Below, piece after piece: positions 7,250 through 56,645 of a stretch of DNA of 64,000 bases. A program made the translations under genes and the position numbers. The stretch lies in the NCBI GenBank assembly GCA_965225945.1, contig CBDDBZ010000038.1, positions 192,001 to 256,000 on the forward strand. Direction: 5' to 3'. Below the pieces are notes generated by a model that was not told where the DNA came from, searched no databases, and was given only the letters and a program-made list of their open reading frames with translations. How positions within the stretch are numbered: the first letter of the stretch is position 1; the number at the start of each line of letters is the position of its first letter. This DNA comes from Alphaproteobacteria bacterium. GTDB taxonomy: Bacteria; Pseudomonadota; Alphaproteobacteria; GCA-2731375.

Positions 7250-8280
7250 TGTCCTCGGACCACAGCAGCTATGTTTCGGCTGTCGTCGCCCGGCTGTGGG
7301 ACTACGCGGGGCGTGAGTTCGGCGACCAGCCAGAGCTGCTGGAGTCGGCCGAGCCGTCGCCGACCCGCCCGCCAGTGTTCGCCGCCGGCGCCGCCGAGCA
7401 CAACCTCCTGTATCCGTCGGACGCCCTGGCTGAGGTCCGGCGGGCGATCGTCGACGCCATACCCCGGGCCGAGCGACACCGCCACTTCGCCAGCATGCGT
7501 AGCTCGCAGGCTCTGGCGCAAAGCGTCTTCGGATCGCTCGTGGCGCTCGGCAAGGTGGGCATGCTGGCTGGCCTGACCACGGACGACGGGCTGCCGGCGT
7601 TCTTCGACGACGTGGCGCGGAGTCACGTCCAGATGGAATACGCCGTCGGTCATCTTGGCGAACCGAGGCCTACCCAGTTGGACGTGTGGTTCAAGGGGGA
7701 GCGTCGGGTCGCGGTCGAGTGCAAGTTCACCGAGCCGGAGTTCAATCGGTGCTCCCGACCCACCATGCGGCCGGGCCGTGACAAGAACTACGAGCGCGAC
7801 CACTGCGACGGCACCTATACCCGCCAGCGCGGGCGGCGGGCGCGCTGCTCGCTGACCGAGATCGACGTCCGGTACTGGCAGCACCTGCCGGAGCTGTTCG
7901 ACTGGCCTCCGGACCGGGACATGAGCCCGTGCCCGCTGCGCGGCACCTACCAGCTGGCCCGAAACGTCCTCGCCGCCTGCGTCCGGCCAGACGGGACGGT
8001 CGACGTCGGGGGCGGCCATGCCCTGGTCGTGTACGACGACCGCAACCCGGCCTTCCGGACCGGGGGCGAGGCCGAACAGCAGCGGTCGGCGGCGATCCAT
8101 GGGCTGGCCCATGCCGGTCTGTTGCGCCGCTGCTCCTGGCAGAGGCTCGCAGGGCACATCGTTCGGGCGTCTGGACTGAGTTGGCTTGTCGATGGGCTCG
8201 CAGCCAAATATGGGATCGAGCCATGTCGGGAGTTGGGGGTACAGTCCCCGTCAAGCAGACATGGTCCCCAGGCTCACTGA
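7249..8280 (+). CDS. PD-(D/E)xK putative restriction endonuclease (PGN_0703-like)
   Basis: SSQALAQSVF, PTQLDV, VECKFTEPEF, YQLARN; last codons run through the palindromic site at 8223. Confidence 0.65.
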   Translation: MSSDHSSYVSAVVARLWDYAGREFGDQPELLESAEPSPTRPPVFAAGAAEHNLLYPSDALAEVRRAIVDAIPRAERHRHFASMRSSQALAQSVFGSLVALGKVGMLAGLTTDDGLPAFFDDVARSHVQMEYAVGHLGEPRPTQLDVWFKGERRVAVECKFTEPEFNRCSRPTMRPGRDKNYERDHCDGTYTRQRGRRARCSLTEIDVRYWQHLPELFDWPPDRDMSPCPLRGTYQLARNVLAACVRPDGTVDVGGGHALVVYDDRNPAFRTGGEAEQQRSAAIHGLAHAGLLRRCSWQRLAGHIVRASGLSWLVDGLAAKYGIEPCRELGVQSPSSRHGPQAH

Positions 8281-8286
8281 TAGCCA
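8223..8286 (-). repeat. Palindromic site type A, occupied by recombinase+IS91-like element 1
   Basis: Minus strand tggcta...gacggggactgtacccccaactcccgacat. Confidence 0.75.
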
Positions 8287-8410
8287 TAGAACGAAACCGC
8301 TTTCAGCGGTAGTTCGTGGTGCCGGGCGGTGAGGTCGGTGGCGTAACGGATGGGTCGATCCTGTGTTGAGGTTTGGAGTTCCGAAGCTCACGCAACACGG
8401 GAGCAGACCC

Positions 8411-9316
8411 ATGACCGATAGTGACAAGACCATCAGCCCGCTGCGCCAGCGCATGATCGACGACATGGTGCTTCGCGGCTTCAGTGCCAACACGCAGCGC
8501 GGCTACATCAGTGCGGTGGCCGGCTTTTCCGACTTTCTCGCACGCTCTCCGGATCGGGCGGAGGCGGAGGATCTCAGGCGCTATCAAGTGCATATGCGCA
8601 AAGCAGGCGCATCGGCGACGACGATGAACGCGGCGGTCTCGGCATTGCGGTTCTTCTTCGGCGTCACGCTCGGCCGAGGCGACGCCGAGATCGGCATGAC
8701 GACGGTGGCAATGCCGCGCAAGCTGCCGGTGATCCTGAGCGTCGAGGAAATGGCGCGGCTTCTCGATGCCGCCCCCGGTCCCAAATACAAGGCGGCCTTT
8801 TCGCTGGCCTATGGCGCCGGCCTGCGCGCTTCGGAGGTGGTCCATCTCAAGGTCCCGGACATCGACAGCAACCGCAAGACGCTTCGCATCGAGCAAGGTA
8901 AGGGCCGCCGAGATCGCTACGCCATGCTCTCGGATCGCGCCGTCGAGCAGCTCAGGGTCTGGTGGTTGCTTGGCCGCGCCCGCGGCGTGATGCTGCCCGG
9001 CGGTTGGCTGTTTCCAGGCCAGAACCCGGTCAACCCGTTGACCACCCGCCAGCTCCGTCGCGCCCTCGATGGCGCCAAGGCGGGGGCGGGGATCGAGAAG
9101 CGGATCTCGCTTCACACGCTGCGCCACTGCTTCGCCACCCATCTCCTCGAACAGGGCGTCGACATCCGCGTGATCCAGGTTCTACTGGGGCACAAGAAGC
9201 TGGAGACCACGGCTCACTACACCCAGGTCGCCAGCACCACCTTGCGGCGCGCCAAGAGCCCACTGGACCTGCTCGAGCCGCCGACGCCCAAGACCAAGCG
9301 CAAGCCGCCGAAGTGA
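8411..9316 (+). CDS. Tyrosine recombinase (integrase)
   Basis: GLRASE, HTLRHCFATHLLE, LLGH, TTAHY; ATG at 8411 after RBS. Confidence 0.93.
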   Translation: MTDSDKTISPLRQRMIDDMVLRGFSANTQRGYISAVAGFSDFLARSPDRAEAEDLRRYQVHMRKAGASATTMNAAVSALRFFFGVTLGRGDAEIGMTTVAMPRKLPVILSVEEMARLLDAAPGPKYKAAFSLAYGAGLRASEVVHLKVPDIDSNRKTLRIEQGKGRRDRYAMLSDRAVEQLRVWWLLGRARGVMLPGGWLFPGQNPVNPLTTRQLRRALDGAKAGAGIEKRISLHTLRHCFATHLLEQGVDIRVIQVLLGHKKLETTAHYTQVASTTLRRAKSPLDLLEPPTPKTKRKPPK

Positions 9317-9329
9317 GCCGGCGGCCTCG

Positions 9330-10544
9330 GTGCCGCGTCCCGCGCTCGAGGTCCAGGACATCTTCCGCGACCACGGGCCCGGCTTCCGTCGGGCCCGGGC
9401 CGGTCGTCTGAGCCTCGGCCAACTGAAGGTCATGTCGGCGATCGAGTGTTGCCGCACCGCCGCGCTCGGCGGTCATGTCGCGGCCTGCGAGGACTGCGGG
9501 CAGAACCACATCGCCTACAATTCCTGTCGCAACCGCCATTGTCCCAAATGCCAAGGCCAGGTCGCGCGCGAATGGCTGGCGGCGCGAGAGGCCGAACTGC
9601 TCTCCGTCCCCTACTACCATCTCGTCTTCACCCTGCCAGCGGCGATCGCCGACATCGCCTATCAGAACAAGTCGGTGATCTACGATATCCTGTTCAAGGC
9701 GAGCGCCGAGACCATGCTCACCATCGCCGCCGATCCCAAGCATCTCGGCGCCAAGATCGGCATCACCGCCGTGCTCCACACCTGGGGCTCGGCCATGACC
9801 CACCATCCCCACATCCACATGATCGTGCCGGGTGGCGGAATCTCACCTGACGGTAGCAGTTGGATCTCTTGCCGGCCCGGCTTCTTCCTGCCCGTCCGCG
9901 TGCTCTCGCGCCTCTTCCGCCGCCTCTTCATCGAGAAGCTCCTCGCCGCCCACGAGGCAGGGCGCCTGAAGTTCTTCACCGACCACACCAGCCTCGCCGA
10001 GCCGGCGGCCTTCCGTGTCTTCCTCGCACCGATGCGCAAACAAGAATGGGTCGTCTACGCCAAGCCGCCCTTCGGCGGACCAGAGGCCGTGCTCGCCTAT
10101 CTCTCCCGCTACACCCACCGTGTCGCCATCTCGAACAGCCGCCTGGTCAGCTGCGACAGCCAAGGCGTCATCTTCAAGTACAAGGACTACCGGCGCAAAG
10201 GACGCGAGCGCTACAAGACCTTGCCCCTGGCCGTGCCCGAGTTCATCCGCCGCTTCCTCCTCCATGTCCTGCCCTCGGGCTTTCACCGCATCCGCCATTA
10301 CGGCCTCTTCGCCAACGGCGGTCGCACCCGCAACATCTCCCTTGCCCGCGAACTGCTTGCCATGCCGGCACCGGAGAGTGAGGCCGACGATGCCGCGAGT
10401 GACGATGATACCGAACCGCCGTCCCTCTCAGAGCCCTGCCCGCAGTGCGGCGGCCGTATGATCGTCATCGAGCGCTTCGAGGCCGGCGCCCAACCACGCG
10501 CCCCGCCCCGTGCACGGCCCCTGGCCAGGGCCACGGCAGCATGA
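9330..10544 (+). CDS. IS91-family (Y2/HUH) transposase with Zn-binding N-terminus
   Basis: SCRNRHCPKC, HPHIH, YLSRY. Confidence 0.93.
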   Translation: MPRPALEVQDIFRDHGPGFRRARAGRLSLGQLKVMSAIECCRTAALGGHVAACEDCGQNHIAYNSCRNRHCPKCQGQVAREWLAAREAELLSVPYYHLVFTLPAAIADIAYQNKSVIYDILFKASAETMLTIAADPKHLGAKIGITAVLHTWGSAMTHHPHIHMIVPGGGISPDGSSWISCRPGFFLPVRVLSRLFRRLFIEKLLAAHEAGRLKFFTDHTSLAEPAAFRVFLAPMRKQEWVVYAKPPFGGPEAVLAYLSRYTHRVAISNSRLVSCDSQGVIFKYKDYRRKGRERYKTLPLAVPEFIRRFLLHVLPSGFHRIRHYGLFANGGRTRNISLARELLAMPAPESEADDAASDDDTEPPSLSEPCPQCGGRMIVIERFEAGAQPRAPPRARPLARATAA

Positions 10545-10560
10545 CCGACACCGCTTCGAA

Positions 10561-11251
10561 TAACGCTATTGCCGCCGCTCACCCGCGGCCACGATCCCGC
10601 TCGCCGCAACACCATCGAGCGCGCAGGGAACCACCTGCGAGACCCGCCGGCATCGACCCGAAGTCGCCATCAAACCACCCTGCCGGTGTCGTCGCCAATC
10701 AGATCCGAGCCATCCAGCAGCGCCGGCCACCCGAGAAAGCTGGCCCGCCGCTCGCAAATCCCCATAGACCGAGCGTGCCGCACCGCCGAGCCTAGTCCTG
10801 CCCGCGGTTTCCTCCCTTAAGCGTTGTCGGACACCTGCCGATCCAGTCCGCCGGATGCAACCCCTGCGCCTCGGCAGGTGTCCGACAACGCTTAACATAA
10901 CGCTATTGCCGCCGCTCACCCGCGGCCACGATCCCGCTCGCCGCAACACCATCGAGCGCGCAGGGAACCACCTGCGAGACCCGCCGGCATCGACCCGAAG
11001 TCGCCATCAAACCACCCTGCCGGTGTCGTCGCCAATCAGATCCGAGCCATCCAGCAGCGCCGGCCACCCGAGAAAGCTGGCCCGCCGCTCGCAAATCCCC
11101 ATAGACCGAGCGTGCCGCACCGCCGAGCCTAGTCCTGCCCGCGGTTTCCTCCCTTAAGCGTTGTCCGACACCTGCCGATCCAGTCCGCCGGATGCAACCC
11201 CTGCGCCTCGGCAGGTGTCCGACAACGCTTAACATACGACAACGCTTAACA
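10561..11251 (+). repeat. Tandem duplications of the oriIS-side end (337 bp x2 plus 17 bp)
   Basis: 10561-10897 matches 10898-11234; 11235-11251 repeats the terminal cgacaacgcttaaca. Confidence 0.9.
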
Positions 11252-11330
11252 TAGGAAATTTGGAACTGGCCCATCGTCTGTAGATTGCGAGATAGTTTGT
11301 CGTTAAGGTTTCTCGGGAGGGAGGAGTTCT

Positions 11331-12140
11331 ATGTCCGACGCCAACCTATGGGATCTGAGCGGTAATGCCGCAGAGCAATACGAGAAGATTCCAGCTCGAT
11401 ACATTTTAGGACCATGGGATCCCTGTCTTGTCGAGGCTGCCGAAATTCAGCGCGATGAGAGAGTATTGGACATCGCTTGCGGGACAGGTGTGGTTACGCG
11501 TGCTGCCGCGGAGAGACTTGGTCCAGCAGGTCACGTTACGGGTCTGGATTTGAACGAAGGAATGCTCGAAGTCGCAAGATCATTGGGAGATTCCGGCAGC
11601 AGTAATATCGCCTGGGTACAGAACAGCGCGACTGAAATCGATTTTTCCGACGACAGTTTTGATGTTGTCTTGTGCCAACAAGGTTTACAGTTTTTTGCAG
11701 ATCAACGGAGAGGGCTGCGAGAAACGCATCGTGTTCTGCGAGGTGACGGTCGAACGTACTTTAGCGTTTGGCGCGGGGCAGGTCCCTATAACGATGCGTT
11801 GGGCGGTGCACTCTCGAAGCACATCGATGAGGATACGTCACAGAGATATTTAGCCTCCCGCGAAGTGCCCGATGCCAATGCGCTCCAGTCGATGTTTAAC
11901 GACACAGGCTTTAGGCAAGTGAGCATCACGCCTATTGATATGGAGGTGCGTTTGCCCGAGATCGAAAAATTCATTCTGGCGCACCTCCGAGGAACGCCTG
12001 TTGCTGGCGCGGTCGAAGCACTTTCTGAAGATGCACAATCTGCAATCGTGGAGGCCGCCGTTAGAGACCTTTCAAAATTTGCTGACGGCTCTGATGTGAT
12101 TGTGCCTGATACCATAAATCTTGTGTCGGCAAGAAAGTAA
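11331..12140 (+). CDS. Class I SAM-dependent methyltransferase (UbiE-like)
   Basis: VLDIACGTG, FDVVLCQQGLQFF; RBS ggagg; lower GC than flanks. Confidence 0.9.
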   Translation: MSDANLWDLSGNAAEQYEKIPARYILGPWDPCLVEAAEIQRDERVLDIACGTGVVTRAAAERLGPAGHVTGLDLNEGMLEVARSLGDSGSSNIAWVQNSATEIDFSDDSFDVVLCQQGLQFFADQRRGLRETHRVLRGDGRTYFSVWRGAGPYNDALGGALSKHIDEDTSQRYLASREVPDANALQSMFNDTGFRQVSITPIDMEVRLPEIEKFILAHLRGTPVAGAVEALSEDAQSAIVEAAVRDLSKFADGSDVIVPDTINLVSARK

Positions 12141-12161
12141 AGGCTAGCTCGGAACCAAGCT

Positions 12162-12259
12162 AACTTCCGGGTTGGGTCACGAATCTCTGTCAAGCATCTT
12201 GTATTGGAGCGTCCGGACCTGGGGGTGCTCCCGACGTCGATTCGGTGAAAGCTGACATT
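12162..12259 (+). repeat. Palindromic site type B
   Basis: aacttccgggttgggtca...gtccggacctgggggtg...gacgt...aaagctgacatt, 21 bp after the methyltransferase stop. Confidence 0.65.
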
Positions 12260-12327
12260 TTCCCGCGAGTGTCTGCTGTTGGGGGTAGGGTATCGTCCGA
12301 CCTTGGTGAATGGCTATGGAGGTACGG

Positions 12328-13080
12328 ATGAGGTTAGCAGGAAAGGTCGCGCTGATCAGTGGCTCGGCGCGAGGAATGGGTGCCGAGGGAGCCAGGCTGT
12401 TCGCCCGGGAGGGCGCGCGGGTCGTGCTCGGCGACGTGCGCGACGAGGCGGGAGAGCAGGTCGTGGCGGAGATTCGCGAGCAGGGCGGCGAGGCGACCTA
12501 CGCGCGCCTGGACGTGTCCGACGAGGCGGCATGGCGGGAGGCCGTGGCAGACGCGGAATCGACCTACGGGCAGTTGGACATTCTGGTCAATAATGCCGGC
12601 ATCGTCAGCTACAGCAAAGGCGACGACGACAGCATCGAGGACTTCGACCGGCTTATGGAAGTCAACGCCAGGGGGACCTACGTCGGCATGCGCGCCGCCA
12701 TACCGGCCATGCGTCGCGCGGGCGGCGGCTCCATCGTCAACATCTCATCGATTTCGGGTCTGGTCGGTCAGAGGCACGTCCACGCGGGATACAACGCCTC
12801 GAAGGGCGCGGTGTGCATCATGACCAAATCGATGGCGGTGCAGCACGCCCAGGATGCCATTCGCGTCAACTCGGTGCATCCGGGGCCCATCCAGACCGAC
12901 ATGACCAAGGAAGCTTGGATGGACCCGGAGCGTCGCCGACGGACCGAGCAGAGCACCCCGCTCGGCCGCTACGGGCTACCGCTCGACGTAGCTTACGCCG
13001 TGCTCTTCCTGGCATCGGACGAAGCGGCGTACATCACGGGCGCCGAGCTGGTCGTGGATGGCGGCTACACGGCGCAGTAG
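12328..13080 (+). CDS. Short-chain dehydrogenase/reductase
   Basis: SGSARGMG, NNAG, YNASK. Confidence 0.93.
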   Translation: MRLAGKVALISGSARGMGAEGARLFAREGARVVLGDVRDEAGEQVVAEIREQGGEATYARLDVSDEAAWREAVADAESTYGQLDILVNNAGIVSYSKGDDDSIEDFDRLMEVNARGTYVGMRAAIPAMRRAGGGSIVNISSISGLVGQRHVHAGYNASKGAVCIMTKSMAVQHAQDAIRVNSVHPGPIQTDMTKEAWMDPERRRRTEQSTPLGRYGLPLDVAYAVLFLASDEAAYITGAELVVDGGYTAQ

Positions 13081-13289
13081 CACCAAAGCCGATAAAACGG
13101 TGCGCCCAATGTAACGCCCAAATCCGCGCCCGCTTCGCACACGCGCGAGGACGATCTCAACCGCTATGTCGAGGGTTTCCACCACGGCTGGGGTTGGATT
13201 CCTCGTTAGGACTATATCGTGAGTTAGCTCGGCCTTCGCCATCCACAAACAAATTTGCTTTGGCCTTATTCTGGCATCAGCAGGGAATA

Positions 13290-13849
13290 CAGCCAGCACC
13301 TCGCATCGCCGTCATTGGAACCCGGGAGCCCAGCGACGATGGCTTTCGCCGGGCGCGAAGGATTACCGAGCTACTGGTCGAGAAGGGCTATACCTTCGTT
13401 TCCGGTCTCGCCGCCGGGATCGATGGCGCCGCGCACCGGACCGCGATCGAAGCCGGCGGCCGTACGATTGCCGTCATCGGCAGGTCGATCTAACTGGCCT
13501 ATCCGATCGAGGACGCCGCGCTTCAGGATCGGATCGCCGACGACCATCTGCTGATCCCACAGGTTCCGGCGCTTCGGTATGCCGCTCAGGATCCCGGTCG
13601 AAACCGCTACTTCTTCCCCGAGCGCAACGCGACAATGAGCGCCTTGACGAAGGCCAGCATCATCGTCGAGGCGGGGGCGACCTCCGGTACCCTCGCGCAG
13701 GCCCGAGCCGACTTCCATCAAGGTCGGAAGCTCTTCATCCTGAACCCGTGCTTCGAAACATCCGGTCTGACGTGGCCGGCCAGGCTGGAACACGAACATG
13801 GCGCCATTCAGGTGCGTGAGCCTGATGACATCTGGTCCGCTCTCGCCTG
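13290..13849 (+). pseudogene. DprA/Smf-like fragment with internal stop
   Basis: VSGLAAGIDG, FFPERNATMS, IIVEAG; TAA at 13491-13493; N-terminus missing. Confidence 0.8.
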
Positions 13850-14007
13850 AAACGTCGAGAGAAACGCGACTGGGCGATGGCGGCATGGAAGGCCAGGCTG
13901 TACGATTTTGGGTGATCGCTGCCATCATGGAGCTGGAGGCGAGTAGGTCCGATGGAACAGTTCATTGAGCAGCTAATTCCGCCGGTACCGCCCCGGCCAA
14001 TGCCGGC

Positions 14008-14080
14008 ATATCGGCTATCGGGGTATAGTCGCCGTCGGGCCGAAATGCCGGTCACGCCCGGCATTAGCCACAGGAAAATT
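14008..14080 (-). repeat. Palindromic site type A, empty
   Basis: Closely matches 17715-17778; abuts the Rieske gene stop codon. Confidence 0.8.
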
Positions 14081-15933
14081 CACGACTCTCCCCTACCCGA
14101 CGCCTCGGCCGCCTCCATCGCCGCCGGCACGTCCTCGTGGATCCTGCCACCGCGGTGAAGGCGTCGGGCAATATCGGCGGTCTGGTACTGAGACCGTTCT
14201 GTGGGCGAATGGGCGGCAAGGAACCGCGCAACGCCGATGAGGATGTGTCCGCCTTCTTCCGCGCCCTGCCAGCTTTGGTACTGGCGCACCCCAGCCTCCA
14301 GGTTCTGATAAGCGTGAAAGCCCGCGTCCTCGCGCAACAGTGCCCGGGCGAGGGTCACTATCAGCGGTGCGCTCGGGTGCTTCTGGCCGAGAAACCGGGT
14401 AACGATTCGTGCCGCCGCGTCGACCTGGCTTTGCCGGTCCATCACCTCGAGCAACAGGCGGCACAGCCCGTCCGCGTCATCCGGCAAATCGTCGAGCGAA
14501 TCTCCCTGCGCACCGGGCAGTAGGGCGGGCGGGACGTTGAGGTAGCGGTTGACATAAAGCGCCATGGCGCCGTGGAAGACGCCGCGCAAGATATCGGGGT
14601 CGGGGTCCGGGGCGCCGGCGCCCGCCTGCTCCTCACCTTGCGCCCGCGCAAGCAGTGCATCGAGGGCGCTGCAGTAGGTGAAGCTGTGATGGGCCGAGTT
14701 CCAATCAGAATGTTCGTTGGCGGTGCCGAAGCGGGCGAGACGGAGCGCAGCCGCGTAGGCGAGCGTCCGGCCGAGGTCCGTTGCCCGGGCGCCGCTAAGA
14801 ACGGCTTCCTTGATGGCCCCCACGATCGCTTCGGCGTCGTCGGCGAGCATGTCCTCGGCGAGTGTCCGGTGGTGCCGCCATGTGCCCGCTTTGGCCCGGC
14901 CCTCGCCGATCAAGTCCGGAAGCTCGGCAAAAGCATTCTCCAGAATTGGCACCAGGTCCACGGGATGGCGCCAGGTGTTCGATTCTTCCCGCCCTTTTGA
15001 CGAAACCAACCCGCGCACCACGCTCGGCAAGATGTCGGTGGCATGCTCCCAGCCGATGACGTCGAGGCATTCGAGGGCCTTGTTGATGAAATCAAGCGCA
15101 TGGCCGCCATCGGCGTAATACCTGTCGGTGACAGCCGAAAGCAGCATATTCGCGAGCTGGCTCTGGCTGGCCCCGGATGCGATCGCCGTGATCAGGGTGC
15201 GTTCGGCGCCGTCGCGGTGGCGGACGAGGGTCCAGCGCCTGAGCCAGCGCTTCAGGGTCGCAAGATTTGGCGCGTGATCTCCCAGCTTGTCCCGCCCCCG
15301 GCGCGGCGCTTCGCCGGCGCAATCGGCGGCCACCCGGCGCACGCCCTTGTAAAGGGCGAGGGTGGTCTCGTCCTCCGGCAGGGCGGGCATGAGTTTGGCG
15401 AGTGCCGTGAGCACGGTGAGGCCGGTTCCCCAGTCGTCCCGGTTGCGGGCCCCGAACAGGGCCGCCTCGCGGACCACGCTCCGCCAGTCGGTGTCCGATT
15501 CTTGCAAGGCCAGCACCGACTTGGCGATGACGAGGCCGAGGTTGTGGGCCATGCCGTGGGTGAGGCGGCGGTGCCAATGGGCGGCCCCGTCGGCGTGACG
15601 GCATTCGCGCCCCACCCAGACCTCGCCGTCGCGCAACTCAACGGGCGCGCTCGGCACGTCGTCCGCCCAGAGGTCGAATGTGGCGCCACTCTTGATGTCG
15701 AAGCGGGCATGGTGCCAGTGGCAAGTGAGGATGCCGTCCTCGACGGACCCGCGATGGAGTGGAAATCCGAGGTGGGGACAACGGTTGTCCAGCACATGCA
15801 CCTCGCCCTCGTCATAAATGACCAGGAGCGGGCAGCGCCCGCCGCCGACCACCATCTTGCCCTTGGCTTTGAGTTCGTCCAGGGTGCAGGCGCGTATGAA
15901 AGCGTCGCGGATTACGTTACCGGTTGCGTCCAT
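14080..15933 (-). CDS. Rieske 2Fe-2S domain protein with long helical C-terminus
   Basis: CPHLG...CHWH; likely start MDATG. Confidence 0.85.
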   Translation of the reverse strand: MDATGNVIRDAFIRACTLDELKAKGKMVVGGGRCPLLVIYDEGEVHVLDNRCPHLGFPLHRGSVEDGILTCHWHHARFDIKSGATFDLWADDVPSAPVELRDGEVWVGRECRHADGAAHWHRRLTHGMAHNLGLVIAKSVLALQESDTDWRSVVREAALFGARNRDDWGTGLTVLTALAKLMPALPEDETTLALYKGVRRVAADCAGEAPRRGRDKLGDHAPNLATLKRWLRRWTLVRHRDGAERTLITAIASGASQSQLANMLLSAVTDRYYADGGHALDFINKALECLDVIGWEHATDILPSVVRGLVSSKGREESNTWRHPVDLVPILENAFAELPDLIGEGRAKAGTWRHHRTLAEDMLADDAEAIVGAIKEAVLSGARATDLGRTLAYAAALRLARFGTANEHSDWNSAHHSFTYCSALDALLARAQGEEQAGAGAPDPDPDILRGVFHGAMALYVNRYLNVPPALLPGAQGDSLDDLPDDADGLCRLLLEVMDRQSQVDAAARIVTRFLGQKHPSAPLIVTLARALLREDAGFHAYQNLEAGVRQYQSWQGAEEGGHILIGVARFLAAHSPTERSQYQTADIARRLHRGGRIHEDVPAAMEAAEASGRGES

Positions 15934-16042
15934 ATCCCCTTGTCCCCAGGCCGGCAAGCCGAGATCCCCCAAATGGCGCCCCCAGTTGCCGACGATGGTA
16001 GCACGATGGGCGTTTGCACCACGATTCCAGTCGCATGATCTA

Positions 16043-17221
16043 GTGTCCCGATTCCGAAGTTCGCATGATTTTCGCCTGCTGTTCAGCGATTTCGATTGTT
16101 CGGAGGCAGAACCGCTGGATGGCGGCGAGGATGTCATCGGCGGATTTGGTCCATTTGAAGGGTTTGGGGTTCTGGTTTGTCGTGTCGATGTAGTCGAGGA
16201 TGGTGCGCTCCAGCTCCTTGGTGGAGCGATGGACGCCGCGCCTGATCTGTTTGTCGGTCAGCAGCCCGAACCAGCGCTCGACCTGGTTGAGCCAGGAGGC
16301 GCTGGTGGGTGTGAAATGGGCCTGCCAGCGCGGCCGTTTGGCGAACCAGTCGCGGATCGCCTTGGTCTTGTGGGTCCCGTAGTTGTCCATGACGATGTGG
16401 ATGTCGAGATCACCAGGGACGTTCGCCTCGACGAGGTCGAGGAATTTGCGGAACTCTCGGGCCCGATGGCGCGGGAAACATTTGCCGATGATCTCTCCCG
16501 TGGCGATGTCGAGGGCCGCGAAGAGAGAGGTCGTGCCGTGGCGCTTGTAGTCGTGGCTGCGCCGCTCCGCCTGCCCGGGGCGCATCGGCAAGAGGGGCTG
16601 GGAACGGTCCAAGGCCTGGATCTGGCTCTTTTCGTCGACACAGAGAACCAGGGCACGATCCGGCGGCGCCAAATACAGACCGACGATGTCGCGGACCTTC
16701 TCCACGAAGAAGGGATCGCTCGACAGCTTGAAGGTCTCCGAGCGATGCGGCTGCAAGCCGAAGGCCCGCCAAATGCGATGAATGGTCGAGGGCGCGTGGC
16801 CGCTCGCCCGCGCCATCGAGCGAAGGCTCCAATGGGTCGCGTCCGGCGGCGTCTCTTCCAGCGTCAGCCGGACCGCTTCCGCGATGGCGTCATCGCCGAT
16901 TTGGCGCGGCGCGCCGGGGCGGGGTTCGTCGTACAGACCGTCGAGGCCCTCCGCCGCATAGCGGCGACGCCACTTGCCCACGGTGTCCGCGCTCGCCTCG
17001 AGACGAACGGCGATCTCCTTGTTCTCCAACCCTTCCGCCGCCGCCAAGACGATCCGAGCCCGCCGCGCAAGCCCCTGCGACGTCTTGCGACGACGAGACA
17101 GCGCCTCCAATTCGGCGCGCTCGTCATCGCTCAAAGAGATCGTCACCGCCACTCTCGCCATCAATCGCGCCTCCTGAAAACAAATAGAGACATAATCATA
17201 TCAATTTATCGATCAGGACAC
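16043..17221 (-). mobile_element. IS630 family element (transposase 16040-17164)
   Basis: TA duplication in CTAG; [17 protein letters not shown]; second copy at 60941-62119. Confidence 0.95.
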
Positions 17222-17714
17222 TAGCAGGTGCGGAGGCATTCGGCTCGGCCGTCTCTCACGCCATGGAGGTCGGGCGCCTTCTGATGGAGGCGAAGGAGAT
17301 AGTACCGCATGGCAGTCGTGGTGACGTCGAGTGCCCCCACCTCCGGGGCGTGAAGCTCGACGGCGGGGGCCGCGCGCCTGGGCGTGGTTCTCGCCACCCA
17401 TTTCGTCGCGCCCGTCAAGTGTAGCCCCCGGTTGCACCCCACGGAAGTCGCGTCGAGCAATCTGCATGGCGGGTGTGCCCCGCCACCGGTTCTGACCCCG
17501 ACGGCGGGGGCCGCGCGGCGCGGGGCGCGTAGCGTCACCCCTTTTCGTCGCGCATCGCCAGTGTAGGCGGTTCACGGCTTCCCGAAAACGTCATCACCGC
17601 CCGTTTCGGGACACGAGGTTTCAGGAAACAGTTTCGGGAGACGAGAAGCGGCGGAAACGTGTCGCGACGCCAGCCCCGCGACGGGGCGGCCGGCGCCGCC
17701 CTCGACCCGTACCT

Positions 17715-17778
17715 ATGTCGGCTATCGGGGGTAGACTCCCCGTCGGGTCGGGGTGCCGGTCATGCCCGGTGCTAGCCA
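17715..17778 (-). repeat. Palindromic site type A, occupied by element 2
   Basis: Minus strand tggcta...gacggggagtctacccccgatagccgacat. Confidence 0.8.
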
Positions 17779-18003
17779 ACGATCGGGATAGGGGGGCGCC
17801 TCGCGGCGCCGCCCCTCCCACACCACCTGGCATACGGGTCACGTACCTCGGCGGTTCGACCGGGTTAAGCATGGGCAGAGACATGGAGTCTGGGGAGACC
17901 GAATGAGTCGAAAGCGTGGTTTCGCAGGGCCATTTGGACCGCCGGGTGTCCGGACATGCGCCAGAACCCGGTCGGTGAACCGGCTGCGACCGCTGCATTG
18001 AAC

Positions 18004-18758
18004 CTTGCCTATCCGGTTATCACCCACACCCACTATATGTAGTGTGCACCCATTTTCCTGAGTAAAGCTCGGTGCAGGTCGAAGCGGAGATATCTCCGGC
18101 GATGCCGAGCAGGGACTCGGACGGCATTGTAGCGCCTTTTAGGCGACACTTTAGCGTGGTGGAAATCCTAATCATTGAGTCGGATTTGGCAAAACGCCAC
18201 GTTGCATAAAGGACCGTCACTTCATTGAAATTTATCTGAAATCGGAGGTGAACGACACCGATGGAATATTCCAGGAAATCAGAGCTTCATTGAATTGTAG
18301 GATTCGAGTGCCGGATTATTCACAAATAGCTCTGTGAACTGGTTTTCAAGTTCGCTCAATACGTCATATGAAGTAAACGGATTGAGGATCACGTTCTTGC
18401 GTGTCGCTTCGTCTTCGCTGCGACTCAAAACGCGCAGGAGACTAACAGGCGCGGACGGGTTCTTCGCAACGATTCGTGCCAGCGCGTCGCTTTCTTCGAC
18501 TAGTGCCGTCAATCGCTCAGACGATGTCGTTTCATCAGCAGCTTCCCGTCTGGCCGTGGGTTTCTTCGTTTTTCCCTTGGTCGCCACCGTTCCGTCCCCC
18601 GATGTTAAGTACGTGACGTGAATTAAACTCCGGTTCGGTTTTCAGAACAATCAAGAATTAGCCGGATCGCCTCCTCAATGCGCCTGCGCCGGCCCTTGCC
18701 TGCAGTCCAAGGAGACACACTACATATAGTGGGTGTGGGTGATAACCGGATAGGCAAG
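18004..18758. mobile_element. Non-autonomous insertion cassette with IS1595 (ISSod11-type) ends
   Basis: Perfect 43-bp IRs starting cttgcctatc; 8-bp TSD CATTGAAC; no transposase. Confidence 0.88.
18279..18587 (-). CDS. Small helical-repeat (LRV-like) passenger protein
   Basis: VAKNPSAPVSLL / VILNPFTSYDVL / VNNPAL repeats; RBS upstream. Confidence 0.55.
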   Translation of the reverse strand: MATKGKTKKPTARREAADETTSSERLTALVEESDALARIVAKNPSAPVSLLRVLSRSEDEATRKNVILNPFTSYDVLSELENQFTELFVNNPALESYNSMKL

Positions 18759-20605
18759 CATTGAACTTTGGGACGCCACGACGGCGCAGTTCCTTGAAGC
18801 GGTTTTGCCCGTTCCGCCATTGCCGCCAAAGATACATTCGTAGTCTTCGGCGGATCCAGGCTTCCAGATGGGTGAGCACGCGGGGGGTCTGGCAGAAACC
18901 GAAATAGCCGCGCCAACCGATCAGGTATGGTGCCAGTTCTTCGATCACCTGCTCGAGGCTGAGCCCCCGTGTCCGGCGGGTGAGGTCCCGGATCCGCGTC
19001 TTGAACTTCTTGAGCGCTTGTGGCGCGATGCGCCGCTCGCTCCCATCGTTCGAGATGCTGAAGCCCAGGAACTTGCGCGCCTCCGGTCGCGCCACCGCAC
19101 TCTTGGCCTCGTTGACCTTCAGCCGCAGCTTCTTGGTCAGGAACCGGCTCACCGAGGCCATGACCCGCTGGCCGGCGCGGTGACTGCGAACATAGATGTT
19201 GCAGTCATCGGCATAACGGCAGAAGCGGTGGCCGCGGCGTTCCAGCTCCTTGTCGAGGTCGTCGAGCACGAGATTGCTGAGGAGGGGCGAAAGCGGACCG
19301 CCTTGCGGGGTCCCCTCGTCCACTGGGCTGACCAAGCCGTTTTCCATCACCCCGGCCTTCAAGAAGGCCCGGATAAGCTTGAGCACCCGCTTATCGGACA
19401 GCCGCGCGGCGACCCGCGCCATCAAGCTGTCGTGGTTCACCCGGTCGAAAAATTTTTCGAGATCGAGATCGACCACGATGCCATAGCCCTCGGCTACATG
19501 ACGTTGCGCTTGGGCGACGGCCTGATGGGCGGAGCGCCCCGGACGGAAGCCGTAGCTGTGCTCGAAAAACGTCGAATCCCAACGCGGTTGAAGGACCTGC
19601 AACAGGGCTTGCTGGATCAGTCTGTCGACGACGCAAGGCACGCCGAGCTTTCTGACCCCGCCGTCCGGCTTGGGTATTTCGACCCGTTTGACCGGCTGCG
19701 GCTGGTAACTTCCTTCGAGCAGTTGAGACCGGATGCTTGGCCAGTGTTCACGCAGGTGGTCCCTGGCGTCGTTGATGGTCATACCATCGACGCCGGGACC
19801 ACCCTTGTTCCTGCGAACCTGTTTCCAGGCCCTTTCGAGGTTCTCTCGCTCGCACACCACCTCCATCAGTTGCTCTGCCGTGGCCGGGTTTTCGGGCTCT
19901 GGCGCCGCCATGGGTGGTTCGGCCCCGTGGTGACCGCCGACCGGGGCTTCACCCCGGTCCCTCGGCTCCAGGGCCAGTGAGTACTGGACGTTCCGCCGCT
20001 CTCCACTCATGAGTTGCCAGTCCTACTTGCCTCTCCCGATCGTTCGGGCCTTCGACCATCGTTGCCGGCTCGGCCTATCCGTTGCTCCGCCTTTCGGCCT
20101 GGAGTGCCTCAATAGCCTTGCCGACGCCATGACCTACTATGCCCTCTGCTGACTCCTGCGCCGCGATCAGGTTGCCTTACGGCTTCCTCAGTTCCGAGAT
20201 CGGAACACGACGCAGGCCTCCCCAGGTAAGTTCGGTCGCCTTCCCCGCAGCCCTGCCGGATCTACAGCCTCGGCCCTTGATGGATATGGACTTCGCGGTT
20301 CGTCGCCCGCTCGTCCGGCCAGGGATGCCTCGTATCCGGTTTCTGTTCGTCAGGTCGCGGTTTTGCTCCACACTGCCTTCGGAAGCCACCTCGCGATGAC
20401 CCCCTTGTGCTTCGCTAATCCTTCACCTCCATCAGGTTGGATGGGAGACTTTCACTCCTAAGCTACCGAACATGCTGGGCACACAACGAAACCGCTTTCA
20501 GCGGTAGTTTGTGGTGCCGGGCGGTGAGGTCGGTGGCGTAACGGATGGGTCGATCCTGTGTTGAGGTTTGGAGTTCCGAAGCTCACGCAACACGGGAGCA
20601 GACCC

Positions 20606-21511: not shown

Positions 21512-21524
21512 GCCGGCGGCCTCG

Positions 21525-33901: not shown

Positions 33902-33916
33902 GTCGAAGTGACAAGG

Positions 33917-37084: not shown

Positions 37085-37094
37085 CGAGCGGCGC

Positions 37095-38345: not shown

Positions 38346-38375
38346 CTTTCCCATTTCTAACCTTTAATGGGAAAG
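38346..38375. promoter_or_regulatory. Inverted repeat, candidate recombinase site/operator
   Basis: ctttcccatt-N10-aatgggaaag; extra arm at 38444-38453. Confidence 0.55.
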
Positions 38376-38392
38376 TCTGCTATCCTCGGCCT

Positions 38393-46029: not shown

Positions 46030-46125
46030 ATGTCGGCTTTCGCTCAGATCACGTCCGGTGTACCCCCAAGACTCACCTAAACATTAGCTGGCGCTAACGG
46101 GAGATTGTTGATCCGCAGCAGCCAT
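46030..46125 (-). repeat. Palindromic site type B
   Basis: Minus strand ggatca..aatctc...tgggggtacaccggacgt...gaaagccgacat, colinear with 12162-12259. Confidence 0.6.
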
Positions 46126-46443
46126 ACCGGAATGTGGCGGAGAGATTGACCGTCGCCCGCGATTGAGGCTCCACTCAGTCCTATAAAAACTGAGGCAATT
46201 GAAGTCCCGCCATTTTCCGCAGCGGCCTACCAAGGGTTCAAGGATTTGCGACGGCCGGAACCAGGACACGTGCTACTTTGCCAATGCAGGGGGCGCAACT
46301 TGACCCGGTCTGGCCATTACACAAGGAAACAGCCGCCGAAGGAGGGGTGGCAATACCGCCAAACCATCTCCTAAAAATCGCACCGCTTAGATCGAGCCGA
46401 TCTGATAGTGCGGTCCATGCACAAGCAATAGGGAGTATTCGCG

Positions 46444-51833: not shown

Positions 51834-51986
51834 GCGCCGCTCCCGTCACACGAGAGCGCAACCCATAGACGCCCGATTCTATGGAGTCAAGAGACGATCA
51901 ACGACGCGGCGGCGGAAACCCGGCCCCGGCGACCACCTACATCATCCTCTCGCGGTCAAGAGCGGGGTACCTGGGTAGTTACCCTC

Positions 51987-52063
51987 GATGTCGTATGTTC
52001 CCCCAGGTACGGGCATGATATCAGAAGATGCTGTTTTACCGGTTATGACCCGAAGGCGACATT
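51987..52063 (-). repeat. Palindromic site type B (continues at 47494-47516 across the IS66)
   Basis: Minus strand aatgtcgccttcgggtca...cccgtacctgggggaacatacgacat; 23 bp after the cyclase stop. Confidence 0.65.
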
Positions 52064-52086
52064 ACCAATCCTTGAAAACCCAACTA

Positions 52087-53853
52087 TTATTCCGGCAGTC
52101 CAGCTGCTCTCAAACCACCCAAAAGGCGCCGAACAATTGCGTTATTGCTGACCATCAAAAGTTCAGGAACGTGCTTAAGACGCAAATTGGGAGCAAACTG
52201 TCGGACTTCCTTCATGGCGTTGGCCGCTTCATCCAACCGTCCAGTCTGGCTCAGGATGTAGGCCTTCTGGAGCCAGGAGTGCAGATGCGTCGGTTCAGCC
52301 TCCAGGATCGCGTCAAACAGCGCCAACGCTTCGTCGAATTCAGAAAGCAGCAGCAGAACCCGCCCCAGACCATTCCTGTACCAGTTCGGACAAAAGGGGC
52401 TGAGCGAGATCGCGGCGCGAAAATGCTCCGCACCCTCGGCGAAGTCTCCAGCGCGGGTTAGTGCAAGCCCGAGATGAGCGCGTGCATGCGCGATACCCGG
52501 ATACAGCTCCACACTACGCCGTGCGATGGCCAGGGCTTCGAAGGCGCGATTCTGAGACCCCGCAACCACGTTACTCAATCCTAGTGCCCAGGGAAGGTTA
52601 TTGTCCAACTCCAGCGCGCGTTCGGCGCATTCCTTGGCGCGTGCGATCTTGGCTTCAGCATCGCCCGTATGGCCCACCCGGCCATCGTGCCAGAAGGTGT
52701 AACCGAGGGTAGCCCAGGCGTAGGCGTAATTCGGGTCGTGGGCCAATGCGTTCTCCGCCAGCGTGCGGGCCTCCAGATAATCCGAGGTATTCCAACGCTC
52801 GATCAGTTCCGTTGCTCTGACACAAAGCTGCCAGGCCTCGATATCCGTGGTACCGCTACCCCATAAACGGGCTTCCTCACCGTCGGTGAGCTTGATGCGT
52901 AACGCTGTGACAATCTCTTTGGTGATCTCGTCTTGAATATCGAAGAGATCATCGATGGTACGGTCGAAGCGTTCGGCCCATACATGGCTGCCGTCGCTCG
53001 CGTCGATCAGCTGCGCGGTGATGCGCAGTCGGTCACCACCTTTCCGGATGCTCCCTTCCATCACATAGCGGACGCCCAGCTCGTTGGCGACCCGGCGCAA
53101 GTCGATGGCTTGCCCCTTGTAGACGAAGGTTGAGTTGCGCGCGATGACGCGCAGTTGCGAAATCTTCGACAGCGCGGTGATGATTTCCTCAGCCATACCG
53201 TCGGCGAAGAACTCCTGCTCGCGATCGCCCGACATGTTGTCGAAGGACATTACTGCGATCGAGGGCTTGTCGGGCAATGGCAACGCGTCACCGCCGGCGA
53301 TTTCCTGAGCGGAGCCAGCGGGCGTTCCCAGGGGAGACCAGCGCCAGACCTGGACTGGCTTGGCGATGTTCTTGACCTCGTGGAGGCCGTCGTCGGTGAA
53401 CTGCGCGTCCGTCTTGCCCTGCACCTGCTCATGGACGTTGCCCGAGATCGCTATGTCGCCGGCCTCGGCAAGCGCCTCCAGACGTGCCGCGACATTGACG
53501 CCATCACCATGGATGTCGTCGCCATCGATGATGATGTCACCGAGATTGATGCCGACGCGGAAGAGCATCCGGCGATCATCGGGCTCGCCCGCGTTGCGTT
53601 CCGCCATTCCCTGCTGAACCTCGATACAGCACCTGACCGCGTCCAAAACACTGGCAAACTCCAAAAGGATTCCGTCGCCGGTCGTCTTGACGATACGGCC
53701 TCGGTGCTCGGCGACCTTGGGATCGACCAGTTCGCGCCGATGCGCCTTCAGCGCCGCCAGCGTGCCATCCTCGTCCACGCCCATGAGACGCGAATACCCG
53801 ACCACGTCGGCGGCGACGATGGCGGCCAGTCTGCGCTGTGTGCCCTCGGACAT
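52087..53853 (-). CDS. Adenylate/guanylate cyclase with TolB-like and TPR domains
   Basis: RRLAAIVAADVVGYS, GDGVNVAARLE, KPSIAV, TPRs. Confidence 0.92.
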   Translation of the reverse strand: MSEGTQRRLAAIVAADVVGYSRLMGVDEDGTLAALKAHRRELVDPKVAEHRGRIVKTTGDGILLEFASVLDAVRCCIEVQQGMAERNAGEPDDRRMLFRVGINLGDIIIDGDDIHGDGVNVAARLEALAEAGDIAISGNVHEQVQGKTDAQFTDDGLHEVKNIAKPVQVWRWSPLGTPAGSAQEIAGGDALPLPDKPSIAVMSFDNMSGDREQEFFADGMAEEIITALSKISQLRVIARNSTFVYKGQAIDLRRVANELGVRYVMEGSIRKGGDRLRITAQLIDASDGSHVWAERFDRTIDDLFDIQDEITKEIVTALRIKLTDGEEARLWGSGTTDIEAWQLCVRATELIERWNTSDYLEARTLAENALAHDPNYAYAWATLGYTFWHDGRVGHTGDAEAKIARAKECAERALELDNNLPWALGLSNVVAGSQNRAFEALAIARRSVELYPGIAHARAHLGLALTRAGDFAEGAEHFRAAISLSPFCPNWYRNGLGRVLLLLSEFDEALALFDAILEAEPTHLHSWLQKAYILSQTGRLDEAANAMKEVRQFAPNLRLKHVPELLMVSNNAIVRRLLGGLRAAGLPE

Positions 53854-54268
53854 GGGTGAAGTCTAACTGAGCTGGCCAACCGCAGGAACTGCGACCTCGA
53901 ACGAAAAGGCGTGTCGGTGCATTAGGGATATTGAATGGAAGGTGTTGTGCAGGTTTCTCGGATGCCTTGCCGGCATAGGGAGTGAGGCGCGGTGTTTGCC
54001 GGCGTCCGAGAAGCGCCAAGGCACGAAATCGCGGGATACAGGCGTCGCTATGGGGATTTGAGCGTGGCGTCGATGGTGGTGTCGTCTGGACGACCCGCAT
54101 ATGGGGCGTGAGGCGCCATAAGGAGATCGTCGAGCGCGGTGAAGCGTTGCCGAGGGGGGCACGAGCGGGGCCGGGGCGGCCAACGATGCCGCCGTTTTCG
54201 GTGTCCCGGGCGAGCGAAGTCGAGCGCCGAGGCTCGGCGGGGAAGGTGGCTGATGTTTTGGGTCGGTG

Positions 54269-55513
54269 TCATGAGCTATCGATGGCCTTCGGCGGTGAAC
54301 GGGCCTTTGGTTGACAGCCGGCCTCGAAGACCTCGACGACGATCATGGGACCGCCACAACGGGGGCACGGTCGGGCGCCCTGGCGTTGGTCCTCGGGAGG
54401 CTCCGAGGCCTCTTCCTCGCTGGCGTCGGGCGCCGGTGGTCCGCCGAGCAGTTCGCGAGCGCGTTTTATGTTGGCGGCGCGGTTGCCGTTTGCAAAGAGG
54501 CCGTAGTGTCGGATGCGGTGGAAGCCCTTGGGCAGGACGTGCATGAGGAAGCGGCGGATGAACTCCGCGACATCGAGGGTCATGGTCCCGTAGCGCTCGG
54601 CGCCGTCGCGGCGGTAGTCCTTGTAGGTGAAGGTAACGGCGCCGTTGTCGAGGCGGAGCAAGCGGCGGTTGGAGATGGCGACGCGGTGGGTGTATCGGGC
54701 GAGGTAGGCGAGCACGGCCTCGGGCCCGCCGAAGGGGCGCTTGGCATAGACGACCCATTCACTCTTGCGCATGGGCGCGAGGAAGGTGCCGAACGCCGCC
54801 GGTTCGGCGAGGCCCGCGTGCTCGGCGAAGAACTTCAGACGTTCGGTCTCGTGGGCGGCGGCGAGCTTCTCGATGAAGAGCCGGCGGAAGAGGCGCGAGA
54901 GCACGCGGACGGGCAAGAAGAAGCCGGGCCGGCAGGCAATCCATTCCGTGCCGTCCGGAGAGACCCCGCCGCCGGGCACGATCATGTGGATGTGTGGTGA
55001 GGCGCCGGTGCGCCATCGGTCCGAGCACGGCGCCGTAAAGCGTCATGGCCGAGCCCCAGGTGTGGAGCACGGCGGTGATGCCGATCTTGGCGCCGAGGTG
55101 CTTTGGATCGGCGGCGATGGTGATCATGGTCTCGGCGCTCGCCTTGAACAGGATGTCGTAGACGACGGCCTTGTTCTGGTACGCGATGTCGGCGATCGCC
55201 GCCGGCAGGGTGAAGACGAGATGGTAGTAGGGGACGGGCAGTAGTTCGGCCTCGCGCTCGGCCAACCAGTCCCGGGCCGCCGCCCCCTGGCACTTGGGGC
55301 AATGGCGGTTGCGGCACGAGTTGTAGGCGATCTGGGTGTGCTCGCAGTCCTCGCAGGCCAAGACGTGCCCGCCGAGCGCGGCCGTGCGGCAGCGCTCGAT
55401 GGCGCTCATGACCTTCAGCTGTTGCAAGCTCACGTGGCCGGCATTGGCCCGACGCCAGGCGGGGCCGAAGTCGCGGAAGATATCCGCGACCTCCAACCCA
55501 TGGGCTGTCACGA
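54269..55513 (-). pseudogene. IS91-family transposase frameshifted next to the HUH motif
   Basis: SCRNRHCPKC, YLARY; 37-bp hairpin insertion 54998-55034. Confidence 0.88.
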
Positions 55514-55524
55514 CCCGGCGGCGC

Positions 55525-56436
55525 TTACCCCGACGGCTTGGCCTTCTTCCGCTTCTTGCCACCGGGCTTGGACAAGAGATCCAGCGGACTCTCGATGGCG
55601 GCGATGGCGCCGGTCGCGACCCGGGTATAGCGCGCCGTGGTGTCGAGCTTGTCGTGGCCCAAAAGCGCTTGGATGTAGCGAATGTCGGTGCCGCGCTCGA
55701 GCAAGTGGGTGGCGAAGGAATGCCGCAACGAGTGCGGCGTCACGTGCTTGGTGATCCCGGCGGCGGCCACCGCCTCCTCGAACAACCGGCTGAACTGCCG
55801 GGTCGTGGCGTGCCGCCCCGCCTCGCGACCGGGGAAGAGCCAGCGCTGTTGCGCAGGCACGCCCGCGTCGTGGCGGGTCGGGCGGGCCCGCCACCATTGC
55901 CTGAGCAACGCCAGCAGTCCCTTCGACAGCATCACGTTACGGTCCTTGCGGCCCTTGCCCTGGACGATACGGATGATGCCTTGGGCGCTGTCGATGTCGC
56001 CGACGCGCAAGCGCACCACCTCGCCCGCTCGCATGCCACAGCCATAGGCGAGCGAGAGCAGCGCGCGGGTCTTCAGGTTCCGGGCCATCACCAGGAGACG
56101 CTTGGCCTCGTCCTGGCTCATCACCTTCGGCAGCCTTTGCGGCTCGCGGATGTGGAAGATCTCCGCCGCGAGATCGAGCCGTCGCAAGGTCACGCGGAAC
56201 AGAAAACGGAGCCCGGTCATGGTCCGGTTGCGGTTGCAGATGCTCATCCCGCTCTCCGCCAGATGAACTTGGAAGCGGCGGACGTCCTCGGCCACGGCGG
56301 TATCGGGCGAGCCATCCAGAAACACGGCAAAGCGCTCGCAGCCGCGGAGGTGGCCCTTCTGCGTGCCCGCCACCAGCTTGCGGGCGTTCATGTCCTCGAT
56401 CATGCGCTGGCGCAATGGGGTCATCGTCGTCGTCAC
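55525..56436 (-). CDS. Tyrosine recombinase
   Basis: GMRAGE, HSLRHSFATH, LLGH, TTARY. Confidence 0.93.
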   Translation of the reverse strand: MTTTMTPLRQRMIEDMNARKLVAGTQKGHLRGCERFAVFLDGSPDTAVAEDVRRFQVHLAESGMSICNRNRTMTGLRFLFRVTLRRLDLAAEIFHIREPQRLPKVMSQDEAKRLLVMARNLKTRALLSLAYGCGMRAGEVVRLRVGDIDSAQGIIRIVQGKGRKDRNVMLSKGLLALLRQWWRARPTRHDAGVPAQQRWLFPGREAGRHATTRQFSRLFEEAVAAAGITKHVTPHSLRHSFATHLLERGTDIRYIQALLGHDKLDTTARYTRVATGAIAAIESPLDLLSKPGGKKRKKAKPSG

Positions 56437-56580
56437 GGAGATGCTCCTTCCTGAGTTGAGGTCGACGAGACCTCAATGATCAGGAACGAGCGCTCGAAGT
56501 GTTATCGATGAAATCCACGGCGGTGGCTGGGCGCGCCATGACCCCTCACCCACGAAATATCGCGTAGCGATTTAGTGCTA

Positions 56581-56645
56581 TGGCTACGAATAGCCGTCCC
56601 GGGCACCCTGGCCCGACGGGGAATGTACCCCCGATAGCCGACATT
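56581..56645 (+). repeat. Palindromic site type A, occupied by element 3
   Basis: tggcta...ggcccgacggggaatgtacccccgatagccgacatt. Confidence 0.8.

Follow-up and report, generated by a model that had tools for sequence, protein, structure and literature searches.

What are the dispersed palindromic sites that surround single enzyme genes in a 64,000-nucleotide stretch of an alphaproteobacterial genome? The stretch (hereafter the window; G000:C38:192001-256000, where G000 is the genome and C denotes a contig) carries two types of site, A and B, which a preliminary description took to be recombination sites for a tyrosine recombinase encoded beside an IS91-like transposase, with the unrelated enzyme genes as cassettes. 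Our analysis instead gives good support to the view that the A/B repeats are preferred insertion targets, or landing pads, of two families of IS91-type insertion sequence (IS) that encode a recombinase together with a Y2 transposase. To the overall reading, in which a repeat family lies between genes and its core is the preferred insertion point of IS91-family elements, we assign a probability of roughly 60%. The enzyme genes between the sites would then be accessory genes among insertion hot spots; as a class, their status as cassettes is not shown. G000 comprises 6.27 Mb in 39 contigs at ~66% GC, of which ~1.7 Mb (~27%) has a BLAST match elsewhere in the same genome, and the genus is sampled by three genomes (G000, G001 and the sister genome G002). 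The window itself is a mosaic of mobile DNA: three IS91-like elements and one group II intron occur together with elements of the IS630, IS1595, IS66, IS21, IS3 and IS5 types, and accessory enzyme genes lie between them.

Types A and B are halves or variants of one repeat family. With every copy read in the orientation that gives the core 5'-RGYCAWN-3' (as TAGCCAWN or GGGTCAWN), the layout runs from an end CCAATGTCGGC (ATGTCGG(CT)) through an optional A body of ~50 nt, the core, the cut point and an optional B body of ~80 nt to the opposite end GCCGACATTGG (CCGACAT). The A body contains GGGGGTA-N3-CCCCGTC; the B body contains TTAGC..GCTAAT and GGAGAGTCTCGGGGGTAC, and the repeat closes with GCCGACAT(TGG). 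What was first described as type A is the left half, and type B combines the core with the right half. Elements are modular and 70-190 nt long, with inverted repeats (GGGG..CCCC, GGCTA..TAGCC). The arrangement of B then A within 8-41 nt is common in G000 and also present in G002, and in uninterrupted A elements AGCYGACATTGG stands directly after the core (clear in four and degenerate in six of 31 A cores). A further composite repeat of ~270 bp, ending in GTGGTATAGCYAWN, is found at C34:266687-266960, at C34:265537-265753, in four copies within C31:77899-85148 and elsewhere; it is arranged in short same-orientation arrays and borders the second copy of a methyltransferase gene discussed below.

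The junctions between the IS elements and the repeats carry the argument. The 26 left ends have 24 unique flanks; with one flank (f1) dropped as a degraded duplicate of another (f5) and the intron-separated f0 counted as two loci, 24 events are available for comparison. At 18 of these the left end follows directly after an A or B core (11 A-type, 7 B-type), and the other six lie elsewhere. Eight of the 18 assignments come from nhmmer A matches, five from a regular expression for the left part of B and five from flanks read by eye. B sites are split by the IS: in 7 of 26 rows a B body was recognized by eye beyond the right end. Among themselves the IS copies share 99-100% identity, and the insertions are therefore recent; since the adjoining A sites are only ~70-85% alike, the sites predate the insertions and are not baggage of the IS. 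In B sites the 20 nt to the left of the cut (ATGTCCG, 4-6 nt, GGGTCAAN) are similar to the final 20 nt of the IS, so that each insertion leaves a target-like sequence behind. The proposal that the sites belong to the recombinase stands to the extent that these junctions tie them to the element encoding recombinase and Y2; either of the two enzymes may act at the core.

The 5' (recombinase-side) hairpin end of the IS is joined directly after the core without target duplication, and its 3' end (GTGTCCGACAACGCTTAACA, then the cut) resembles the sequence left of the B-site cut. In the mechanism that we envisage, Y2 would generate a single-stranded rolling-circle form of the IS as the moving species, and the target would be recognized as a mimic of the IS's own termination end; the recombinase may integrate or resolve circles. 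IS91 offers a parallel, its target tetranucleotide lying against oriIS and being similar to the terIS cleavage site (PMC13181058).

Several observations weigh against the landing-pad reading. Firstly, six of the 24 junctions lie outside recognizable A/B elements. Secondly, relatives of the IS in other taxa follow a short GSCAAN-like motif with no A/B element at five loci, where the flanks are GTGCCATT, GGGCCGAA, GGGGCAAA (twice) and GCGCCAAG; nhmmer found no A/B site beside such relatives at 81 loci, and inspection by eye of the left flanks of a relative with several copies in one metagenome-assembled genome revealed no common repeat. The single IS copy of G002 follows the full core TAGCCATA with no detectable A/B match beside it. 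Together with the flanks from other taxa, this copy implies that a short motif may suffice; the short motif may thus be the basic requirement, which the A/B repeats of this genus would present in an especially good form. Thirdly, the assignment of strands, with the left end as origin, would reverse the layout of canonical IS91, in which terIS is upstream of the transposase gene. Nor was support found for a conserved fold of the sites. RNAalifold gives two pairs at -0.77 kcal/mol, hand-drawn helices have a compensatory change in 2 of 11 pairs, which is not above slid or shuffled controls, and the z-scores for DNA folding run from -3.1 to +0.7, with no energy beyond that of shuffles. With neither covariation nor extra folding energy, recognition of a folded single strand is unsupported. 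No target duplications, presence/absence polymorphism or polymorphic empty sites were found. Finally, a methyltransferase module and three homology or synteny breaks placed exactly at cores, all considered below, suggest that the repeats are more than passive targets.

In the window, type A elements occupy 8220-8293 (-), with an ATGTCGG end, an A body and the core TAGCCATA ending at 8290, where it abuts an IS left end; 14005-14076 (-), located 5 nt past the Rieske stop codon (gene at 14080-16137, -); 17711-17784 (-), with a group II intron directly after the core; 37016-37095 (+), with a 168-bp element (36858-37025) at its core; and 56575-56648 (+), whose core abuts the left end of a family 2 IS. 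Four of the five A sites originally listed are thus in place, and the fifth, at 36846, carries no A motif, the true copy being 37016-37095. All of the B sites put forward (12162, 46030, 51987 and a partial one at 33874) are present: 12161-12258 (+), with the core GGGTCA, the B body and a ...GACAT end; 33862-33974 (-), which is degenerate; 46030-46129 (-); and 51977-52074 (-), a complete short element that reads ATGTCG, 6 nt, GGGTCATA, the cut point, the body and CGACAT. The last of these lies ~20 nt past the stop of a cyclase-TPR gene (52087-53853, -). The A sites given as 14008 and 17715 are indeed direct repeats around the Rieske gene, with an IS630-like element also between them. The A core motif has seven matches in the window compared with 1.59 expected, a count reached by none of 100 shuffles. 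Over the whole of G000 nhmmer returns ~48 A copies (E<=0.01) and ~30 B copies (E<=0.05); in total ~85 repeat copies are present, clustered in IS-rich regions, and A/B matches make up roughly 0.1% of the genome.

Some of these sites have neighbours that deserve description. The 168-bp element, between the position first claimed and the true A site, has 17-bp inverted ends (GAGGCTGTTGAAAAAGT) and relatives at C33:194727-194887, C19:12252-12412 and G002:C4:272539-272705; it occurs at the cores of at least two A variants. A ~170-bp element with TGTGTGAAAAC inverted ends (G002:C4:264450-264700) lies 2-3 nt from a core, and at the matching core G000 instead has a family 2 element after GGGTCAAG. A restriction-endonuclease-like open reading frame (REase-ARP; 7207-8280, +, stop position provisional) reads into the A element at 8220-8293. 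Beside another A element (37016-37095) is a gene for a 503-residue tyrosine recombinase (37514-39025, +), the first ~490 nt of which are present in at least six copies at 89% identity in G002. Just outside the A element at 56575-56648 is a ~120-bp fragment (56660-56785, -) that encodes a resolvase-type helix-turn-helix C-terminus; such a fragment stands just outside an A element at two or three loci (window; C29:162.6k; C35:223k). The cyclase/TPR gene is one of ~30 paralogs in G000, with 70-82% nucleotide identity over the cyclase part.

The IS elements themselves are well defined. Copy 1 of family 1 (8291-11236, +) has its left-end hairpin from 8291 and a right end ...GCTTAACA, and encodes a tyrosine recombinase of 301 residues (8411-9316, +) and a Y2 transposase of 404 residues (9330-10544, +), both recognized by Pfam and NCBIfam models. 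A 338-bp tandem duplication at its right end (10530-11236) is followed by a 17-nt partial right-end repeat (11237-11253). In copy 2 (20486-24134, +) the Y2 gene is interrupted by an IS1595-family element (22242-23271). The family 2 element (53945-56574, -) has a recombinase gene (55525-56436) and a Y2 gene in two pieces (54269-55562); its recombinase and that of family 1 share 49% identity. Recombinase N-termini in G000 number 20 for family 1 (>=97% identity) and four for family 2. The left end of the IS begins GAACGAAACCGCTTTCAGCGG and is hairpin-forming, and the right end is a hairpin with a 24-bp stem that terminates in ...GTGTCCGACAACGCTTAACA. Its last 338 bp are tandemly repeated as two units in copy 1 and as three in one copy on C39 (C39:252594-253637); such repeats are compatible with errors in rolling-circle termination. 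The IS1595-family element (~1030 bp) recurs at the same Y2 position (~residue 239) in at least eight other IS91-like copies, and either a composite is being copied or the position is an insertion hot spot.

Membership of the IS91 family is clear from the Y2 protein, a HUH transposase with an N-terminal zinc-binding domain, which matches PF04986 (Y2_Tnp) with 229 bits, PF14319 (Zn_Tnp_IS91) with 110 bits and NF033538 (NCBIfam transpos_IS91) with 427.6 bits against a cut-off of 125. At the 24 left and 26 right junctions target duplication is likewise absent, hairpins lie subterminally and one end adjoins a short specific target. The recombinases fall below the cut-off for the Xer and integron-integrase models, scoring 175 and 191 bits with TIGR02249 against 265. 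They are the best TIGR02249 matches in G000, and no match in the whole genome is above the cut-off. Profile positions 183-234, the region in which the IntI-specific insert lies, are unmatched.

A group II intron (17781-20486, -; reverse transcriptase/maturase 18658-20010) lies between the A core at 17711-17784 and the left end of IS copy 2. The same intron stands directly after the cores of three different A elements (window; G000:C9:30133..; C36:320109). At two of the three the intron separates the core from an IS91-like left end, and a terminator-like hairpin is located just inside that end.

Could the association with IS elements be secondary, the sites acting in RNA as terminators or as mRNA-stabilizing stem-loops of the kind known for repetitive extragenic palindromes (REP), or being the decayed ends of old IS? 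Location is in keeping with such a role. With gene calls made as crude GC3-filtered open reading frames and sites taken at E<=1e-3, 62 of 65 sites in G000 are intergenic, against 65 among 300 random windows, and some of them follow a stop codon by only a few nucleotides; the Rieske, methyltransferase and cyclase genes do end shortly before a site, at a distance of 5-30 nt. This is no general rule for the genome, and the enrichment just 3' of genes that had been anticipated does not appear beyond the intergenic location itself: 6 of the 65 sites are within 30 nt of a stop codon compared with 5 of 65 random intergenic positions (11 and 10 within 60 nt), and the sites are no nearer stops than starts. 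The inverted repeats fit a stem-loop, and the repeat ends, ATGTCGG/CCGACAT, are similar to the TTGTCGG/CCGACAA arms of the hairpin at the IS right end. Against this, an Rfam scan returned only group II intron domains and nothing at the sites, and the fold statistics given above lend no support. As to decayed ends, there is no overall similarity between the A/B composite and IS ends (best local score 36), a derivation that we rejected; the ends of IS630-like elements, tried as parents of the repeats, are unrelated, and no parent element with the ends of the repeat was found in the window. We consider an RNA or decayed-end origin very improbable.

The repeats are nearly confined to this genus. 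The type A covariance model (R1) has 48, 23 and 2 matches in the three genus genomes and one marginal match (E 7e-4) among 58 other genomes of the family and class; B sites were detected in G002 by BLAST, and metagenome contigs, scanned with a strict A pattern, gave no match. Y2 relatives occur in 11 of 61 genomes, eight of which have no A sites. The expected co-occurrence with the recombinase and Y2 pair does not hold, therefore, despite A sites in 3/3 genus genomes, since G002 has 23 A sites and one intact IS91-like element and the eight genomes with Y2 have none. A literature search, supplementary tables lying outside it, found no account of these repeats or of the targets of recombinase-bearing IS91 elements, the nearest case being an IS91-like element beside an attC site (PMC9229058).

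Are the genes between the sites cassettes? We regard a cassette system as possible but unproven. One gene answers well to the description. The methyltransferase module (11254-12179, +; gene 11331-12140) ends in the core GGGTCAC, has ~50-56% GC in a 66% GC genome, and recurs as a 926-nt copy of 92% identity at C34:265761-266686, with no IS beside it; the next best protein match among 400 genomes of the class is 37%. Homology between the two copies begins after a TAGCYATA core, by 3 nt on C34 and by 17 nt in the window (past the partial IS right-end repeat), and ends exactly at the next core, GGGTCA, and the bodies of the outer sites differ between the two loci. Such a module is what would be expected if an IS-borne, IntI-like recombinase acted in trans to excise and integrate single-gene modules at cores, the A/B bodies being accessory sequence like that of attC or attI. 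In support of such a system, four of 50 mapped cores have an endpoint of low-copy homology within 6 nt, compared with none in each of eight shifted controls, and a block of 98-99% identity between G000 and G002 stops at GGGTCWAG. Composite repeats 0.6-4.4 kb apart form short same-orientation arrays on C34, C31 and C29, and the cargo genes are diverse, those queried being mostly not found in the two sister genomes. The standing of the IS-borne recombinases as the best TIGR02249 matches is also in its favour. Recombinases associated with IS91 are classed in an 'integron-like' subgroup that lacks the IntI insert (10.1101/542381), and an IS91-like element is described beside an attC site in a Shewanella integron (PMC9229058).

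The wider tests do not follow. Only one clean module is in hand. Taken genome-wide, with a loose core 8-mer and 536 low-copy homology blocks, 26 endpoints fall at cores compared with 21-46 in shifted controls, and no block has both ends at cores. An SDR gene common to G000 and G002 has no bounding sites in G002. Neither the lack of enrichment 3' of genes, nor the retention in G002 of 23 A sites beside one intact element, nor the absence of an attC core pair and of an integron integrase above the cut-off is as a cassette system would have it. The other site-bracketed units give gene-sized paralog or ortholog matches to their cargo in G001/G002, or none, and no informative boundaries. The cyclase gene was rejected as a duplicated module, belonging as it does to the family of ~30 paralogs, and a C19/C33 duplicate was rejected as a site-linked event, differing by a 755-bp indel away from any site. 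Of four sequencing runs, all present as Logan contigs that break at the repeats, three are contiguous over 12114-16066. Cassette-like boundaries at two cores are thus shown for one methyltransferase module, to which a few breakpoints at cores can be added in favour of the enzyme genes as cassettes. On balance the trans-acting system seems unlikely. Rather unlikely, too, is a platform distinct from integrons in which single-gene modules and whole IS91-type elements would alike be inserted at a 7-8 nt core in near-genus-specific palindromes by the enzymes of the IS, including an integron-like recombinase without the IntI insert.

The same module can be explained in another way. In one-ended transposition of the IS91 type, replication that misses the right end of the element would stop at the next core-like sequence, carrying a gene with it, so that cores would serve as surrogate termination sites. 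Two arrangements in the window have the required order of A core, IS, single gene and core with B body (8220-12258 and 51977-56648), the 17-nt partial repeat and 338-bp tandem repeats look like errors of right-end termination, and the core resembles the terminus of the IS right end. For IS91 itself, one-ended transposition is well documented (PMC13181058). Read-through leaves the second methyltransferase copy, with no IS beside it, unexplained; the module copies differ by 8% whereas the IS copies are 99-100% identical; and the cyclase gene is followed by its own complete B element, not merely by a core. We judge it improbable.

Among the closest known systems is the IS91 family (IS91, IS801, IS1294), which shares with the elements described here the Y2 HUH transposase with its zinc-binding domain, subterminal hairpins at both ends, the lack of target duplication, insertion next to a short specific target similar to one end of the element itself, and termination errors at one end (PMC13181058). 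In one plasmid record a subgroup with an upstream tyrosine recombinase carries the label 'IS91-like element ISMno24 family'. The elements described here differ from IS91 in the extra Xer/IntI-like recombinase gene and in an insertion strongly biased into one host repeat family. Their conserved target (RGYCAWN with ~12 nt upstream) is adjacent to the end upstream of the genes, whereas IS91 is drawn with its target at the downstream end.

Elements that target palindromes are a second precedent: IS1397 and ISKpn1 insert in REP and bacterial interspersed mosaic elements (BIME), and the IS1111-attC group and group IIC-attC introns in attC sites. A mention of such targeting is found in PMC9229058. 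As with these, copies lie here at a constant point within a dispersed palindromic repeat, and the group II intron occupies three A cores; the present case differs in the combination of a HUH Y2 transposase with a tyrosine recombinase, and in a longer, modular repeat with ~85 clustered copies. REP/BIME are short palindromes that occur between genes by the hundred, alongside a RAYT (Y1) transposase. In G000 62 of 65 sites are intergenic and the ~85 copies are clustered in IS-rich regions; of its Y1_Tnp genes, three full copies exist, none at an A/B site by coordinates. Miniature inverted-repeat transposable elements are likewise shorter than 300 bp, intergenic, lineage-specific and present in tens of copies, and the best A/B copies have 12-nt inverted ends, but neither target duplication nor insertion polymorphism was seen here and no parent element with these ends was found in the window.

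[quoted passage not shown] They differ in that the inverted pair RYYYAAC/GTTRRRY is absent, its place being taken by TGGCTA...TAGCCGACAT in A and GGGTCAAN...GCCGACAT in B, in that a B+A composite has its two cores as direct, not inverted, repeats, and in that structure is not conserved by RNAalifold, pair counts or folding z-scores. Integrons further have an integrase above the cut-off and an attI/Pc platform, both missing here, and there is no preference for the 3' side of genes and one cassette-like module. The pdif modules of Acinetobacter plasmids are bounded by XerC/XerD sites, 28-bp and dif-like with an 11-6-11 layout. They resemble the present arrangement in having sites of alternating orientation that bracket accessory genes, but the elements here are 70-190 nt long and their alignments have no 11-6-11 layout (no search with the dif consensus was made). 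That the sites are neither attC nor dif, as first stated, is borne out.

Two further features of the window and its sources may be recorded. An intergenic segment at 26235-26455, between genes for an aldo-keto reductase and an M24 peptidase, has 73-77% matches at many places in G001 and G002 and is another dispersed repeat. Runs containing this stretch are labelled as sponge metagenome, together with runs of several organisms, and the contig depth of the IS630-like element and of the group II intron is hundreds to thousands of times that of single-copy DNA.

IS91 and ISCR elements spread accessory and resistance genes, and their choice of target has so far been known only as a tetranucleotide. 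G000 presents ~24 natural insertion events with a much longer recognizable target that mimics the end of the IS itself, and one gene module bounded by the same cut points as the IS insertions. It becomes testable whether the target is chosen by Y2 or by the recombinase, whether single- or double-stranded DNA is recognized and whether arrays are built in the manner of cassettes. If only the hot-spot reading is true, then this is a tidy but ordinary IS specialized on a host repeat. If the cassette platform were true, it would be a natural hybrid of integron-type cassette capture and HUH rolling-circle transposition in a sponge-associated alphaproteobacterium.

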